The position numbers and the translations under genes are program-made. The notes under the pieces are model-generated. The model had not been told where the DNA came from and did not search any database. It saw only the letters and a program-made list of their open reading frames with translations. From assembly GCA_030612885.1 (NCBI GenBank), contig JAUWMZ010000003.1, positions 5,578 to 69,577 of the forward strand: 64,000 nucleotides of DNA, given 5' to 3'. Source of the DNA: Candidatus Nealsonbacteria bacterium (lineage in GTDB: Bacteria; Patescibacteriota; Minisyncoccia; Minisyncoccales; JAGMDC01). How positions within the stretch are numbered: position 1 is the first letter of the stretch; every line of letters begins with the position of its first letter. Positions 30,204 to 34,817 of the stretch are shown here, piece by piece.

Positions 30204-30271
30204 CAAATTTTTTTTACGGGATTCGAATCAGGATATGCCCAATAATAAAACAAATAATTTTTAAAATCACT

Positions 30272-30874
30272 ATGTTTTATAATAAAAAAGGGTTTACCCT
30301 TATAGAATTATTGGTTGTTATTGCTGTTATTGGGGTTCTATCAAGTATTGTTTTGGTCAGTTTAAGCGGAGTAAGAGGAAAGGCGCGAGATGCTATCAGA
30401 CAAAGTGATATGAGCCAAATCAGAAAAGCTTTAGAGGTATATTATACTGATCACGGACACTATCCTAGTACTGGAAGTATTAAAACTACATATTGTGATC
30501 TTGGTTGTACAGGTGTATGTGGACACGCTAGTGCTCGTGATAAATGGATACCAGATTTAGTGGAGGAAGGTTATTTTGCCGAATTACCTCGCGACCCTAA
30601 TCCTAAAGATCAAGCCAGAGGATCCAGTAGAAAAGCCGCTTGTTATATGTATGCTAGCGATGGAAATAAATATATTTTAAGCGCTTGGGCTACTGTAGAG
30701 ACGGGTCCTATAAGTGTAAATCATGGTTTTTATAGCAGAGCAGGATTTAGAGAGGTTAGTATTTGTGACCAATTTTATCTTTGTAATCATCCTAATATAG
30801 GTAATCCCGCTTGGGGAGATTATTATAAGTATTCGTACACAATTACAAGTGATAATCTTGGTTGTAGTTGGTAG
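30272..30874 (+). CDS. type IV pilin-like protein (prepilin N-terminal methylation motif), variant 1
   Basis: [33 protein letters not shown], followed by a Cys-rich variable globular domain. The 5' extension in the ORF track runs through tRNA-Val and is rejected. Confidence 0.88.
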   Translation: MFYNKKGFTLIELLVVIAVIGVLSSIVLVSLSGVRGKARDAIRQSDMSQIRKALEVYYTDHGHYPSTGSIKTTYCDLGCTGVCGHASARDKWIPDLVEEGYFAELPRDPNPKDQARGSSRKAACYMYASDGNKYILSAWATVETGPISVNHGFYSRAGFREVSICDQFYLCNHPNIGNPAWGDYYKYSYTITSDNLGCSW

Positions 30875-30892
30875 AAAATTTAGAGTGGCGAT

Positions 30893-30915
30893 GTGGCGAT
30901 GTCAAACATCGCCAC
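30893..30915 (+). repeat. GTGGCGATGTCAAACATCGCCAC hairpin repeat, copy 2
   Basis: Identical 23-mer, 19 nt after the pilin stop, preceded by the partial duplication GTGGCGAT. Confidence 0.8.
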
Positions 30916-30965
30916 CCTCACACAGGATATGCCCAATAATAAAACAAATAATTTTTAAAATCACT

Positions 30966-31514
30966 ATGTTTTATAATAAAAAAGGATTTACTCTTATAGA
31001 ATTATTGGTTGTTATTGCTGTTATTGGAGTTTTATCCAGTATTGTTTTGGTTAGTTTGAGTGGAGTAAGAGATAGGGCAAGGGATGCGATAAGGAAACAG
31101 GATGCACGTCAGATAGAGAGTGCTTTAGAGATATGTAGAAATTCTCAAACAGGTGAATATCCAGACACTACTGGTGGTACAGGAGTTTATTCAAAAGCAT
31201 CAATCAAATGTTTAGGATTTGGAACAGCTGGAACTTGTTTTAATGGTAGGCATTCCGGACTTGATTCGTTACAATCCTGTCTTCCGACATCTATACCCAC
31301 TGATCCCGGCAGAGAGAATGCAATTTTTGATACATATTTATACTCTTCCGCTTGCCATTCTTCCCATTTACCACCAAGTGGTGGAAGATGTATATATTGG
31401 CAACCAGAGGGAGAAATTAGTGATGAGTCGTGCTATCCCGGGAAAAAAGGTGGTTCAGGAAGTGATGTGTGTGGTTATTCGTGTAATTTTTGTACGCTAA
31501 AAATCGGAGATTAG
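30966..31514 (+). CDS. type IV pilin-like protein, variant 2
   Basis: The same 5' UTR and the first ~60 coding nt are identical to variant 1 (30229-30335 versus 30923-31029). The C-terminal domain is divergent and Cys-rich. Confidence 0.88.
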   Translation: MFYNKKGFTLIELLVVIAVIGVLSSIVLVSLSGVRDRARDAIRKQDARQIESALEICRNSQTGEYPDTTGGTGVYSKASIKCLGFGTAGTCFNGRHSGLDSLQSCLPTSIPTDPGRENAIFDTYLYSSACHSSHLPPSGGRCIYWQPEGEISDESCYPGKKGGSGSDVCGYSCNFCTLKIGD

Positions 31515-31584
31515 TTAAGAAATAGTATTAAATCCAGAGCTTATTTGTATATTAAGGAACAAATTCAATCAAAATTTTACTATT

Positions 31585-31859
31585 ATGAACAATCAAGAAA
31601 ATGAAAAAATTGATTTAAGTGAGTTTCCTCTTGAAAGAAAAGAGCCGGTTTCTGGTTCAAAAAAATCTTTTGACTTAAAGGGTTTCTAGGGTAAAACAGA
31701 TAAAAAAACCAAGTTTACATAATAATTATTATAATTTCTTTTATTTTAATGATTATTTTTTTGAGTTTATTTTTATCTAAAAATAGTGGAAACGGAGGAA
31801 CTGTTGCTCCTGAATATGCTCCTCCGGCTGAAGAGGAATATATGTTTCCAGAGCCTTAA
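31585..31859 (+). pseudogene. degraded copy of the small MDNQKDENEK membrane-protein gene
   Basis: MNNQENEKIDLSEFPLERKEPVSGSKKSFDLKGF then an in-frame TAG at 31687 (TGG in the intact copy at 32743), plus a 1-nt deletion in the following A-run. Confidence 0.7.
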
Positions 31860-31890
31860 GTATTTTATTTAAAAGGGATTTTTTATAAAT

Positions 31891-31975
31891 ATGTCCAACA
31901 TTTTATTTCAATATCTACAATGGCATTTTAATGACCAGACAAGAGCTATTTTGAGGTCGCTGGTTCAAATCCTCT
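31891..31975 (+). pseudogene. 5' fragment of the 34437 membrane-protein gene (duplication junction)
   Basis: ATGTCCAACATTTTATTTCAATATCTACAATGGCATTTT... matches the start of 34437 (MSSILFQYLQWHF), then diverges after GAGCTATTTTGAGG. Confidence 0.65.
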
Positions 31976-32035
31976 AATGCCCAATAATTAATATTCTGCG
32001 GGAAGCCATCCCGCAGAATAAATCAATAATAAATT

Positions 32036-33029: not shown

Positions 33030-33100
33030 ATGTCCAGTATCTTATTTCAATATCTACAATGGCATTTTATTGGCCAGGTAAGAGCTATTTTAAGGGTTTT
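33030..33100 (+). pseudogene. second 5' fragment of the 34437 gene
   Basis: ATGTCCAGTATCTTATTTCAATATCTACAATGGCATTTTATTGGCCAGGTAAGAGCTATTTTAAGGG is identical to 34437-34503, then diverges. Confidence 0.65.
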
Positions 33101-33147
33101 TTCTCGAGGGAAAGATTTAGTTTTTAAAGAAGTGGTAAATCAAACCC

Positions 33148-33390
33148 ATGTATATTTATCTTGATGAATCGTATAATCTAAAAGACAGAGAAAAGAAGCA
33201 GTTTATTAGCATTAACGGTTTTGCAGTTTTAGATGAGAGAAGTTTGTTTAAAAAATGGAAAGAGTACCGTTATCCTTTTACTGGGAGACGCCGCATTCAT
33301 GCTACAGATTCTGCTTTTAATAAATTAAGGTTGAAAACTTTAAAGCTTATTGGACGACCTGATTTAACTTTATTAAGCGTTTCAAAATGA
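33148..33390 (+). pseudogene. N-terminal fragment of a DUF3800-like protein
   Basis: MYIYLDESYN... resembles the DUF3800 N-terminal (I/Y)IDESG motif. At only 80 aa it is too short for the family. Confidence 0.4.
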
Positions 33391-33394
33391 TCCA

Positions 33395-33510
33395 AATAAA
33401 AAATCCGCTGAAATAGCGGATAGAAGCCTTTTGGGACTGTTCTGGTTTCACTGGGATATTCCTAAAATGAGAATGCCCTTCGCCAGACTTTACCTTAAGG
33501 ACTTACTCTT
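33395..33510 (-). ncRNA. candidate ~115-nt sRNA with consensus promoter and intrinsic terminator
   Basis: Minus strand: TTGACA (33544-33539) -N16- TGT-TATAAT (33522-33517). Terminator ATCCGCT-atttc-AGCGGAT (33421-33403) followed by TTTTTTATTT. No ATG anywhere in the transcript. Confidence 0.55.
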
Positions 33511-33592
33511 ATTATCATTATAACAATCCAAGAACCCTTGTCAAGAGTTTTAATACATTTCTCAAATTATCTTCAAGTGGTATAATAAAACT

Positions 33593-34111
33593 ATGTCAAT
33601 TTTTAATAAAAACAAATTTCTAACAGGTTTTACCCTTATTGAATTATTGGTTGTGATTTCTGTTATTGGAGTTTTATCCAGTATTGTTTTGGTCAGTTTA
33701 AGCGGAGCAAGAGAGAGCGCGCGTATCGCCGAAGCTGAAAGCATGATTGAGCAGTTGCATAAAATTATTTTAATAAATCATTTAAACTCAGGCGGTACTT
33801 CTCCTTCACCCAGTAATACAGGCATAGGCACAGGATGTACATATTGGGGACCTGGAACTATTGTTGGGTTTGTTAATAATACTGGTAATTATTATGCTGA
33901 TTGGATGGGTCCATATCTTTCGGAAGTCCCTAAGGATCCATGGGGTAATTGTTATGTTATGGATGGTCCAGTTGGAGAGGGTTGTCCTGCAAGTTATGGT
34001 TCAATGATATGCTCTTCAGGGCCAAACGGAAGTTTTGCTGGGGCTGACTATCCCTGGAATCTTCCACCAGGACAGGGGGACAATATATGTAAAGAATTTT
34101 TATGCCCTTAA
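33593..34111 (+). CDS. type IV pilin / GspG-like pseudopilin, variant 4
   Basis: [38 protein letters not shown], and C-terminal [13 protein letters not shown]...SSGPNG resembling the GspG/pilin DPWG...GPDG motif. An extended -10 element TGGTATAAT lies at 33578-86. Confidence 0.85.
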
Positions 34112-34140
34112 AAAAGAATCAAGTTTATTTATAAGAACTT

Positions 34141-34416
34141 ATGGATAACCAAAAAGATGAAAATGAAAAAATTGATTTAAGTGAGTTTCCTCTTGAAAGA
34201 AAAGAGCCGGTTTCTGGTTCAAAAAAATCTTTTAATATAAAATATATTAGGAGTTCTTTTGCTAAGATGGATAAGAAAAATCAAATATATATAGCAATTA
34301 TTATAATTTCTTTCATTTTAATGGTTATTTTCTTAGGTTTATTCTTGTCTAAAAAGAGTAGTAGTGAAGGAAATATTGCTCCTGAATATGCTCCTCCGGC
34401 TGAAGAGAACATATAA
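34141..34416 (+). CDS. 91-aa single-pass membrane protein (pilin-cassette companion), copy 3
   Basis: Same N- and C-terminal sequence as 32743-33009. Confidence 0.65.
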   Translation: MDNQKDENEKIDLSEFPLERKEPVSGSKKSFNIKYIRSSFAKMDKKNQIYIAIIIISFILMVIFLGLFLSKKSSSEGNIAPEYAPPAEENI

Positions 34417-34436
34417 TCATCAATCATCAATTTTAT

Positions 34437-34817
34437 ATGTCCAGTATCTTATTTCAATATCTACAATGGCATTTTATTGGCCAGGTAAGAGCTATTTTAA
34501 GGGCTTGGAAAAATTTTTTGAGCTTTGGTTTGAATTATTTTTCTATTTCATTGCTTTTAAGAACTTTTTGTTCTCCTTGGCGAAGATACAAGTATTTTTA
34601 TCCAAAAAGTTTTGATTTTAAGCAATACATTGATGCTTTTACTTTCAATGCCATTTCCAGAGGAATGGGAATGCTCATGAGAATTATCTTAATAATAATC
34701 GGAATTATAGCCGAGTTTTTTATTTTTTTTGCCGGCTTATTATTTGTTTTGATTTGGCTGTTTTTGCCGGTTATTTTAATTATTTTATTTTTTTATGGCA
34801 TCAAACTTTTATTTTGA
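34437..34817 (+). CDS. 126-aa polytopic membrane protein
   Basis: MSSILFQYLQWHFIGQVRAILRAWKNFLSFGLNYFS..., with C-terminal TM helices. Its 5' end is duplicated at 31891 and 33030. Confidence 0.6.
   Translation: MSSILFQYLQWHFIGQVRAILRAWKNFLSFGLNYFSISLLLRTFCSPWRRYKYFYPKSFDFKQYIDAFTFNAISRGMGMLMRIILIIIGIIAEFFIFFAGLLFVLIWLFLPVILIILFFYGIKLLF

Follow-up and report, generated by a model that had tools for sequence, protein, structure and literature searches.

A tRNA-Val-linked array of type IV pilin modules in Candidatus Nealsonbacteria, probably accreted by recombination between species

Four pilin genes in tandem are bordered by tRNA-Val and by a gene for a conserved membrane protein

In a 64,000-nucleotide stretch of a Candidatus Nealsonbacteria contig (JAUWMZ010000003.1, assembly GCA_030612885.1; here called the window and numbered from its first letter), four pilin genes stand in tandem in an array of 4.2 kb, bounded on the left by tRNA-Val(CAC) and on the right by a gene that we call D, in a genome of the Minisyncoccales/Parcubacteria type. 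Copies of a small gene, the companion, follow three of the four pilins, and fragments of both bordering genes lie between the modules. The features of the array are listed below; comparison genomes and contigs carry numbers beginning with L, and Greek letters denote pilin types.

30132..30204, plus strand: resident tRNA-Val(CAC), the left border (ARAGORN; Rfam tRNA, 73.9 bits); allele type A, acceptor GGACGAT/ATCGTCC
30216..30241, plus strand: tRNA-Val 3′ fragment f1, T-loop and acceptor, ...GGATATGCCCA; 18/20 positions match the tRNA-Val 3′ end of L090/L092
30272..30874, plus strand: pilin 1 (type gamma), 200 aa, leader MFYNKKG/FTLIE; Pfam N_methyl 4e-9, TIGR02532 above cut-off
30923..30935, plus strand: tRNA-Val 3′ fragment f2, CAGGATATGCCCA, the L090/L092 allele, at the start of the repeat common to pilins 1 and 2
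30966..31514, plus strand: pilin 2, 182 aa, same leader as pilin 1, Cys-rich C-terminal domain
31585..31859, plus strand: companion copy 1, a pseudogene (TAG at 31687–31689, A8-to-A7 frameshift, 6-nt N-terminal deletion)
31891..31956, plus strand: D 5′ fragment 1 (D nt 1–66), 58/66 identical to resident D, spanned by the independent contigs L004 and L005
31953..31983, plus strand: tRNA-Val 3′ fragment f3, fused to D fragment 1 through a common GAGG
31995..32017: hairpin hpA, TCTGCGGGAAGCCATCCCGCAGA, 23 nt, 100% identical in L090, L091 and L092
32036..32716, plus strand: pilin 3 (type delta), 226 aa; N_methyl 3e-10; Laminin_G_3 19.5 bits, below cut-off
32743..33009, plus strand: companion copy 2, 88 aa, single-pass membrane protein
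33030..33096, plus strand: D 5′ fragment 2 (D nt 1–67), 67/67 identical to resident D
33097..33592, plus strand: block X, with a decayed open reading frame (ORF) at 33148–33390 and a plus-strand promoter-like site at 33559–33586, before pilin 4
33593..34111, plus strand: pilin 4 (type alpha), 172 aa, GspG-like body; Pfam T2SSG 9e-7 and N_methyl
34141..34416, plus strand: companion copy 3, 91 aa
34437..34817, plus strand: gene D, the right border, a 126-aa conserved membrane protein with an SPWRRY motif; a ClpB-like AAA+ gene is next
34827..34849: hpA in inverted orientation, 3′ of the D stop codon and 5′ of the likely start of the ClpB-like gene (ATG at 34863); a compensatory G/C swap preserves its stem

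All four pilin ORFs match N_methyl above its cut-off (E = 3e-10 to 5e-5) and TIGR02532 with 28–37 bits against a cut-off of 16.3, and each has the prepilin motif of a short basic leader ending in Gly, F at +1, E at +5 and a hydrophobic alpha-1 helix (the leaders end G/FTLIE). As predicted proteins they are bona fide type IV pilins. Their sequence matches in the PDB (PilA, PilE and GspG) cover the N-terminal helix alone, and the four C-terminal domains are mutually unrelated. That of pilin 1 is 93% identical at the amino-acid level and 91.4% at the nucleotide level to pilin b of L091, and pilin 3 is 93.0% identical in nucleotides to pilin c of the same genome; the C-terminal domain of pilin 2 has no counterpart among the other arrays. 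Type alpha pilins occur in all four arrays of this kind, pilin 4 being ~90% identical in amino acids to L089_Pa, L091_Pd and L092_Pb. A ConA/LamG-like fold for the C-terminal domain of pilin 3 is a tentative assignment from the sub-threshold Pfam match listed above and a confident precomputed match in L091 relatives; AlphaFold2, run on pilin 3 without an alignment, gave a predicted local distance difference test (pLDDT) score of 46 and no usable fold. Pilin 4 alone among the four has a convincing promoter-like site of its own, and no pilus assembly genes (PilB/C/D/M and others) were found among the window ORFs scanned.

The companion matches no Pfam or NCBIfam family. At 90% identity it forms seven clusters among 5.8 billion, and a profile search added ~30 more distant clusters with the layout MNNQ..IDLSQFP..W.KM.KKNQI-TM-..EYAPPAEE; these relatives are unannotated proteins of 86–122 aa from NCBI records and metagenome assemblies, and the few that are named belong to Patescibacteria. 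In the two lineages of remote homologs whose gene context could be looked up, the companion lies 24–29 nt 3′ of an N_methyl pilin (with tRNA-Val(CAC) just upstream in one of them), and pilin and companion are therefore a conserved gene pair. The companion is nearly identical behind very different pilins and is thus not allele-specific. The pseudogene, copy 1, has a C-terminus (...EEEYMFPEP) that matches the L089 companion preceding intact D. Exact-protein look-ups for pilin 4 and for companion copies 2 and 3 returned no further contig.

Gene D belongs to no annotated family. Its homologs (n = 60) are spread over Parcubacteria, Minisyncoccales and Nealsonbacteria, and every named one comes from the Parcubacteria or the candidate phyla radiation (CPR). 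Across 80 GTDB species-level loci that carry D (close relatives, with D 77–89% identical, were treated separately), a same-strand tRNA-Val gene lies 5′ of D at a distance of 2–300 nt in 17 loci and of up to 6 kb in ~39. In L098 and L100 the distance is 5–7 nt, in the arrangement tRNA-Val-TCAAAAC-D, and this adjacency suggests the ancestral state. The tRNA-Val-to-D gaps of distant species hold ordinary genes. Searches of the 80 loci for the companion (tblastn and a family hidden Markov model), for a pilin motif 5′ of D and for duplicate D or tRNA fragments gave 0/80, so the array design is confined to a narrow clade. An Rfam scan of 30–35 kb returned nothing except the tRNA, even at E<=1, and sequence composition across the array showed no anomaly. 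D overlaps the ClpB-like gene in L089, L090, L091 and L093 (L092 is identical in sequence), unlike in the window.

The repeated units are bordered by pieces of tRNA-Val and D

The first-pass annotation of this DNA, made from the letters alone, had proposed that a unit of pilin, companion and 5′ end of the next gene was duplicated at least twice by recombination. The self-BLAST that it suggested as a check (blastn of 29.5–35.5 kb with the dust/low-complexity filter off) recovered every repeat that it had listed, with E values of 2e-146 to 6e-18, far beyond chance. Pilins 1 and 2 do have their 5′ UTR and start in common before they diverge: the 63 nt of 30229–30291 recur without change at 30923–30985, a stretch of 149 nt (30229–30377 versus 30923–31071) is 94.6% identical and one of 212 nt 84%, and beyond that only background remains. 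Pilins 3 and 4 both start MSIFNKNK, as described, with 83.8% identity between 32026–32154 and 33582–33717. The three copies of the small companion gene, the first inactivated by a TGG-to-TAG change and a frameshift, were also found: copies 1 and 2 are 91.9% identical (31597–31842 versus 32761–33008), and copies 2 and 3, taken together with the D 5′ piece, are 92.3% identical over 364 nt, including a 105-nt exact stretch (32742–33096 versus 34140–34503). The truncated starts of the 34437 gene lie at 31891–31956 (58/66) and 33030–33096 (67/67), both ending in ATTTT(G/A)AGG, and 31889–31956 matches 33028–33095 and 34435–34502 at 88%.

The left boundary of the repeated unit is a tRNA-Val 3′ fragment, hairpin hpA or block X. 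What had been described as T-loop-like boxes are real (ATGCCCAATAAT at 30235, 30929 and 31977) and are the 3′ ends of tRNA-Val genes. Fragments f1–f3 do not match the resident tRNA-Val; the alleles that they do match are intact in L086, L090/L092 and L102. The 5′ T-stem of f3, GCTGG, is of the L102-type allele and its 3′ part, CCTCTAATGCCCA, of the L086-type allele (22/22), and f3 looks chimeric, with a crossover in the T-loop. L091 holds a tRNA fragment (GAGGTCAGAGG/TTCAAATCC/TGCATCGTCCAC) that is a similar chimera. At positions 8190–8224 of L089, a tRNA-Val fragment at a junction has a 35-nt hairpin-like insertion, CGTACCCCGTAGTCAACCGAAGGTTGTACTTCGGG, inside the T-stem.

In the window, two D fragments are joined to unrelated sequence. 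Junction 1, between D fragment 1 and f3, was reassembled at 100% identity in two other datasets, on contigs L004 (ERZ4219663) and L005 (SRR12623518), and junction 2, between D fragment 2 and block X, recurs in another species, L091, at 95–97% identity.

Junctions recur in related genomes beside different modules

The arrays and cargo found at the tRNA-Val/D site are given below, with c for the companion and Df for a D 5′ fragment whose number is the breakpoint; a slash marks a junction.

Window: tRNA – f1 – gamma – f2 – P2 – c(pseudo) – Df66 / tRNA fragment – hpA – delta – c – Df70 / X – alpha – c – D
L089 (Minisyncoccales GCA_049642725.1): tRNA – alpha – c – Df66 / tRNA fragment – beta – c – D
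L091: tRNA – fragment – beta – c – gamma – Df70 / X – delta – Df100 / hpA – alpha – c – epsilon – D
L092/L093: tRNA – beta – c – D(+11) / hpA – alpha – c – Df66 / tRNA fragment – Pc – c – D
L090: non-pilin cargo, parted by a tRNA fragment and by Df100 / hpA
L086 (Parcubacteria DG_74_2): tRNA – D(1–36) / Type II methyltransferase and 420-aa gene / D

In four genomes of the clade, including the window, modules of a pilin with or without a companion stand at this site in differing number and order, with two to five pilins in tandem. The comparison with related genomes that the first-pass annotation had called for found its modules there, and found also that the junctions are not private to the window and have different neighbours. 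The join of D(+66) to the tRNA variable loop occurs in the window, L089 and L092, and that of D(+70) to X in the window and L091, in each case with differing neighbouring modules; D(+100 or +11) joined to hpA is a third recurrent kind of junction in the clade. Heads and bodies are swapped between genomes, the window having tRNA fragment–hpA before delta and X before alpha, and L091 having X before delta and hpA before alpha. Leaders and 5′ UTRs go with genome or position and not with the type of C-terminal domain: type alpha has four different leaders in four genomes, whereas pilins of different type have common leaders within L091, within L092 and, as pilins 1 and 2, within the window. Swapped heads and bodies together with leaders that track genome or position point to crossovers in the conserved 5′ region of the pilins.

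Sister genomes hold non-pilin cargo at the same site, including a restriction–modification (R-M) system and other genes, again with D 5′ fragments. The site is a general hot spot rather than the product of a duplication specific to pilins. L091 and L092, two species with pilin–companion arrays at this site, both come from metagenome ERZ23498622, so donors and recipients of modules co-occur. In L086, positions 5807–5854 and 5932–5980 form a 49-nt direct repeat (96%) across the D 3′ end and the spacer between D and ClpB, and rearrangement may affect this 3′ side of D as well.

Array modules are exchanged, and a sister genome has an insertion with long target duplication

Between the window and L091, gamma is 91.4% identical, delta 93.0% and X 95–97%, compared with 81.4% for the 7.7 kb of flanking genes. 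Duplication in place followed by divergence therefore does not account for the whole array, some of which was imported or exchanged, and these identities indicate an exchange that was probably recent and horizontal. The alpha–companion module, at 84–86% between genomes, is about as diverged as the core and may be ancestral. What stands of the proposed duplication history is the repeated unit itself and the exchange of variable domains behind conserved 5′ ends, and the view of the array as a locus of pilin diversification is supported; what probably does not stand is an origin in two local duplications, since the junctions, the tRNA alleles and cargo of higher identity were found in other species.

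A scan of metagenomes with a conserved 21-mer from the D 5′ end yielded only four contigs, which were the source of an empty and occupied pair of sites. L098 and L100 are empty, and L086 has a 2,651-bp insert at D+36 with a perfect 36-bp direct repeat, in flanks that are 99.9–100% identical. The insert is smaller than 20 kb, has no mobility gene and is flanked by a repeat of >30 bp that is single in the empty genome, as in the definition of Furuta 2010, and the comparison of L086 with L098/L100 is, at the level of sequence, evidence for insertion with long target duplication in CPR bacteria. The L086 methyltransferase is 87.6% identical to its L012 version, while D is 74.6% identical between the two; in L012 the methyltransferase comes directly after tRNA-Val, without a D fragment, so the left join is not site-specific. 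For modules 3 and 4 of the window the flanking repeats are 66–67 nt, and the sole candidate for an empty-site contig, L002, crosses the 105-nt exact repeat and may reflect an assembly switch. In L002, which comes from the window's own population, the companion is joined straight to full D, as is the alpha–companion in L096, which differs from L092 at 16 positions.

No tyrosine or serine recombinase (Phage_integrase, Resolvase, Recombinase) was found in any cargo, array ORF or scanned window ORF of >=100 aa. The only transposase-like gene found is of the Y1 (IS200/IS605-type) family and lies at 43826–44720, directly after tRNA-Glu(CTC) and bracketed by inverted GCAACCCGACCC/GGGTCGGGTTGC. We considered this transposase (43967) as a mobiliser of hpA and discarded it, its flanking inverted repeats being unrelated. 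A diversity-generating retroelement was set aside as well, the mismatches between repeats being mixed transitions and not adenine-specific, with no reverse transcriptase among the scanned ORFs. An integron, an integrase island and a prophage were likewise rejected on the lack of any recombinase or phage gene in the scanned window ORFs or cargo and the absence of hpA from IMG/VR contigs.

The tRNA-Val/D interval as a probable recombination hot spot between species

We favor a reading, to which we give a probability of about 0.6, in which the tRNA-Val/D interval is an inter-species recombination hot spot that accretes pilin modules, rather than the site of a simple local duplication. The anatomy of the array, its common junctions, the higher identity of cargo than of core, the chimeric tRNA fragments and the empty and occupied pair were observed directly, and from them we infer a recombination pathway and a biological role. 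These bacteria are thought to import DNA through pili. DNA from related lineages would enter the cell and recombine, anchored in a conserved flank on the D/ClpB side or on the side of the upstream gene and tRNA, while the other end would join imprecisely within the first ~10–100 nt of D or within the tRNA 3′ half. For a product to persist, both D and tRNA-Val would have to be regenerated intact, and for that reason partial copies of both would remain as scars. With two or more modules in place, the pilin 5′ block (~150 nt) and the companion–D 5′ block (~350 nt) would serve as portable homology, through which homologous recombination could swap C-terminal domains behind resident leaders, homogenise 5′ ends, and delete, duplicate or permute modules. 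One route to permutation would be a circle of tRNA 3′ end, module and D 5′ end re-entering by a crossover in the T-loop, which would explain how one D(+66)/tRNA junction comes with different tRNA alleles, as well as the chimeric fragments. The set of pilus subunits or adhesins would thereby become changeable, in an organism whose attachment and DNA uptake probably depend on pili.

Several observations weigh against this reading. The pathway is read from its scars, and the pilin repertoire is that predicted from genes alone. The D(+66)/tRNA variable-loop junction is found with two tRNA alleles (type A for L092, the L086 type for the window and for L089), which requires either an ancient junction followed by a crossover exchange of the tRNA part or some preference for the site; purely illegitimate joining would hardly repeat, and the D breakpoints do recur. 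In three of four cases (window fragment 2, L089 and L092) the D fragment is 100% identical to the start of the resident D, and the L086 repeat is identical at 36/36 positions; a diverged donor D brought in from outside explains this less well than true target duplication or gene conversion does. The model also leaves unexplained why hpA is perfectly conserved in four genomes amid variable sequence. L002 and L096, finally, are short contigs that cross an exact repeat of 99–105 nt and might be switches of assembly path.

Part of this pattern would arise without import if unequal or illegitimate exchange between sister strands had produced two or more tandem duplications of [pilin–companion–D 5′] on the spot, whose copies later diverged and now and then had their variable domain replaced. 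A tandem duplication with its ends in tRNA-Val and D is expected to yield the D 5′/tRNA 3′ topology, with GAGG/AAGG as microhomology at the join; companions 2 and 3 with the D fragment are 92% identical with their 105-nt exact stretch, pilins 1 and 2 have 63 exact nt in common, and the alpha–companion module, at 84–86%, is diverged between genomes at roughly the core level. We consider such an origin rather unlikely, however, as the tRNA fragments match alleles other than the resident tRNA-Val, both D junctions occur in other species beside different modules, gamma, delta and X are 10–14 points closer to L091 than the core is, and the two junctions run on into unrelated sequence (a tRNA fragment in one, X in the other). 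The recurrence of breakpoints at D+66/70 and D+100 would instead suit an undescribed site-specific cassette system, integron-like or akin to integrase-less mobilisable islets, whose recombinase would be encoded elsewhere and would have as its sites the T-loop of tRNA-Val, the D 5′ end (~100 nt) and/or hpA. hpA is 100% identical in four genomes, is always at a border, and has after D an inverted copy whose stem is kept by a compensatory change; the chimeric tRNA fragments cross over in the T-loop, a classical integrase sublocation; and the R-M insert is flanked by a perfect 36-bp repeat. Yet neither the scanned window ORFs nor any cargo encodes a tyrosine or serine recombinase, the D breakpoints vary (+11, +36, +66, +70, +100), the left junction of one methyltransferase cargo differs between L086 and L012, most junctions and the viral contig collection lack hpA, and the terminal repeats of the Y1 transposase at 43967 are unrelated, all of which makes a dedicated system quite improbable.

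That one pilin is expressed and the others are donor cassettes for frequent gene conversion, as in the antigenic or phase variation of Neisseria, seems very improbable to us: the four genes are complete, with start codon, prepilin leader and intact ORF, rather than 5′-truncated silent copies, and their C-terminal domains are unrelated folds of differing length that cannot be aligned for segmental conversion, even though the conserved 5′ region and the downstream companion supply homologous flanks, each genome has homogenised 5′ ends and pilin 4 alone has a convincing promoter-like site. An assembly artefact, in which the assembler strung together strain variants of one pilin locus by their common repeats, is scarcely credible, because junction 1 is found at 100% in two independent assemblies and junction 2 in another species. 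Other assemblies of the same population do break at the repeats (L001 begins 60 nt before D, and L002–L005 are short), and L002 gives an alternative path; against this, the divergence of companion copy 1, a pseudogene, and the identity of only 88% in D fragment 1 go beyond differences between strains, and arrays of the same design stand in four other genomes.

Relation to known systems

The architecture of the recombination hot spot is closest to the pilin islands of Pseudomonas aeruginosa, and its mechanism to insertion with long target duplication and to tRNA-linked islands. In the outline given by PMC11626772, after Kus et al. 2004, P. aeruginosa has pilA alleles I–V with the accessory genes tfpO/W/X/Y/Z beside tRNA-Thr. 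As far as that outline goes, the likeness lies in a variable major pilin followed by a small allele-linked accessory gene, beside a tRNA gene, varying by strain and thought to be horizontally exchanged, and the difference in a single pilin per strain there against two to five tandem pilins here. By the same outline our locus also differs in that the tRNA is tRNA-Val and upstream, that the companion is not allele-specific, and that the module borders bear pieces of both flanking genes; in our searches the companion had no detectable homology to P. aeruginosa TfpX/Y/Z or FimB.

The idea of insertion with long target duplication is reportedly associated with work by Nobusato from 2000 together with that of Furuta from 2010. 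As described there, such insertions are found mostly in naturally competent or transformable species (Furuta, Abe & Kobayashi 2010, PMC2853133). They resemble the present case in having small cargo without mobility genes and a target duplication of >30 bp (PMC2853133), the R-M cargo of L086 being 2.65 kb here; they differ in that they were described for R-M systems at scattered sites, whereas here one target, the D 5′ end, is reused, the cargo includes pilin modules and the events are stacked into an array. As in tRNA-targeted islands, 3′ fragments of the tRNA, which start in the T-loop, variable loop or anticodon stem and reach the acceptor end, stand at module borders 3′ of the intact tRNA, and the 3′ part of the tRNA is directly repeated at 30216–30241, 30923–30935 and 31953–31983. 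Unlike in such islands, no integrase was found in the scanned ORFs, the modules are only 0.7–1.4 kb, the fragments come from several alleles with one of them abutting a D fragment, and the left breakpoints in the tRNA vary.

With Neisseria pilE/pilS the locus has in common clustered pilins, a conserved 5′ region, variable C-terminal parts and signs of recombination in the conserved part, but here the genes are full ones with leaders and the variable domains are unrelated rather than variants of one fold; no G4/sRNA element was noticed, though no search was aimed at one. Silent, promoterless copies lacking their 5′ ends, as in the pilE/pilS type, were looked for, and the array holds four genes with ATG, leader and full ORF. 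Integron arrays and the "orphan" toxin/immunity modules of contact-dependent growth inhibition (CDI) and Rhs systems are likewise tandem arrays of small exchangeable modules, and in orphan CDI/Rhs arrays too each module retains a conserved piece that enables homologous swaps; the conserved pieces here come from flanking housekeeping genes and not from the cargo gene's own upstream part. The IntI/attI/attC organisation of integrons is absent here. We rejected an integron on that account: instead of intI and an attC at the 3′ end of each cassette there is hpA, the sole conserved hairpin, at one border in the window and 5′ of a gene. Distinct to this locus are up to five stacked pilin genes, one reused target, the D 5′/tRNA 3′ junctions and an unannotated companion family.

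Hairpins, block X and other genes of the window

In the four genomes that have it, the window included, hpA always lies at a module border, and the sequence flanking it differs between genomes on either side; in the window it marks one module border, 5′ of the gene, and it is absent from most junctions and from IMG/VR viral contigs. A second hairpin, hpB, occurs in three copies in the window, each just 3′ of a stop codon, two of which have a 31-nt block in common that is 100% identical (self-BLAST; pattern search); it may be a terminator or an element like repetitive extragenic palindromes (REP).

30886..30916: hpB, after pilin 1 (core GGCGATGTCAAACATCGCC)
27627..27657: hpB
51293..51311: hpB

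Block X is 95–97% identical to positions 10983–11404 of L091, where it also follows a D fragment. On its minus strand a perfect sigma-70-type promoter (TTGACA-16-TGnTATAAT, 33544 to 33517) faces a terminator-like hairpin at 33421–33403, and the minus-strand region 33395–33544 is 94.7% conserved in L091. This unit could encode a small or antisense RNA of ~110 nt; it has no Rfam match, and its fold is no better than that of shuffled sequences (z = -1.2).

Elsewhere in the window, 53969–56443 encodes an 824-aa protein with TrwB/VirD4-type coupling-protein domains, which fits the type IV secretion or conjugation-like machinery described in Patescibacteria (PMC12102498). At 21031–25971, two camelysin/TasA-like genes (Peptidase_M73) cluster with those for an S26 signal peptidase and a protein with a lamin-tail domain, and the cluster may represent a second type of surface-fibre locus. 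Fic/DOC-domain proteins are encoded at 16777–17199 and 51356–52195, and a Fic gene also lies near the hot spot in L090.

Implications

In Saccharibacteria, type IV pili mediate host binding (PMC11623550), and pilin diversity has been proposed to track host specificity (PMC7739484). Our findings do not overturn current ideas: they provide a useful and testable case, with no new principle unless hpA and the junctions are the sites of a dedicated recombinase. Should that site-specific reading be true, pilin and defence cassettes would be captured, reordered and exchanged between co-occurring species, and episymbiotic ultra-small bacteria would be able to switch attachment specificity by an integron-like device. 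Small membrane proteins without annotation make up the companion family, which is encoded directly 3′ of a pilin in every locus examined, and metagenomic reads can be searched for the junction sequences to count cassette variants. The locus offers a sequence-level picture of how a pilin repertoire is remodelled in a clade of Parcubacteria, with a fixed site, stacked modules, exchange between species and the scars that record it.

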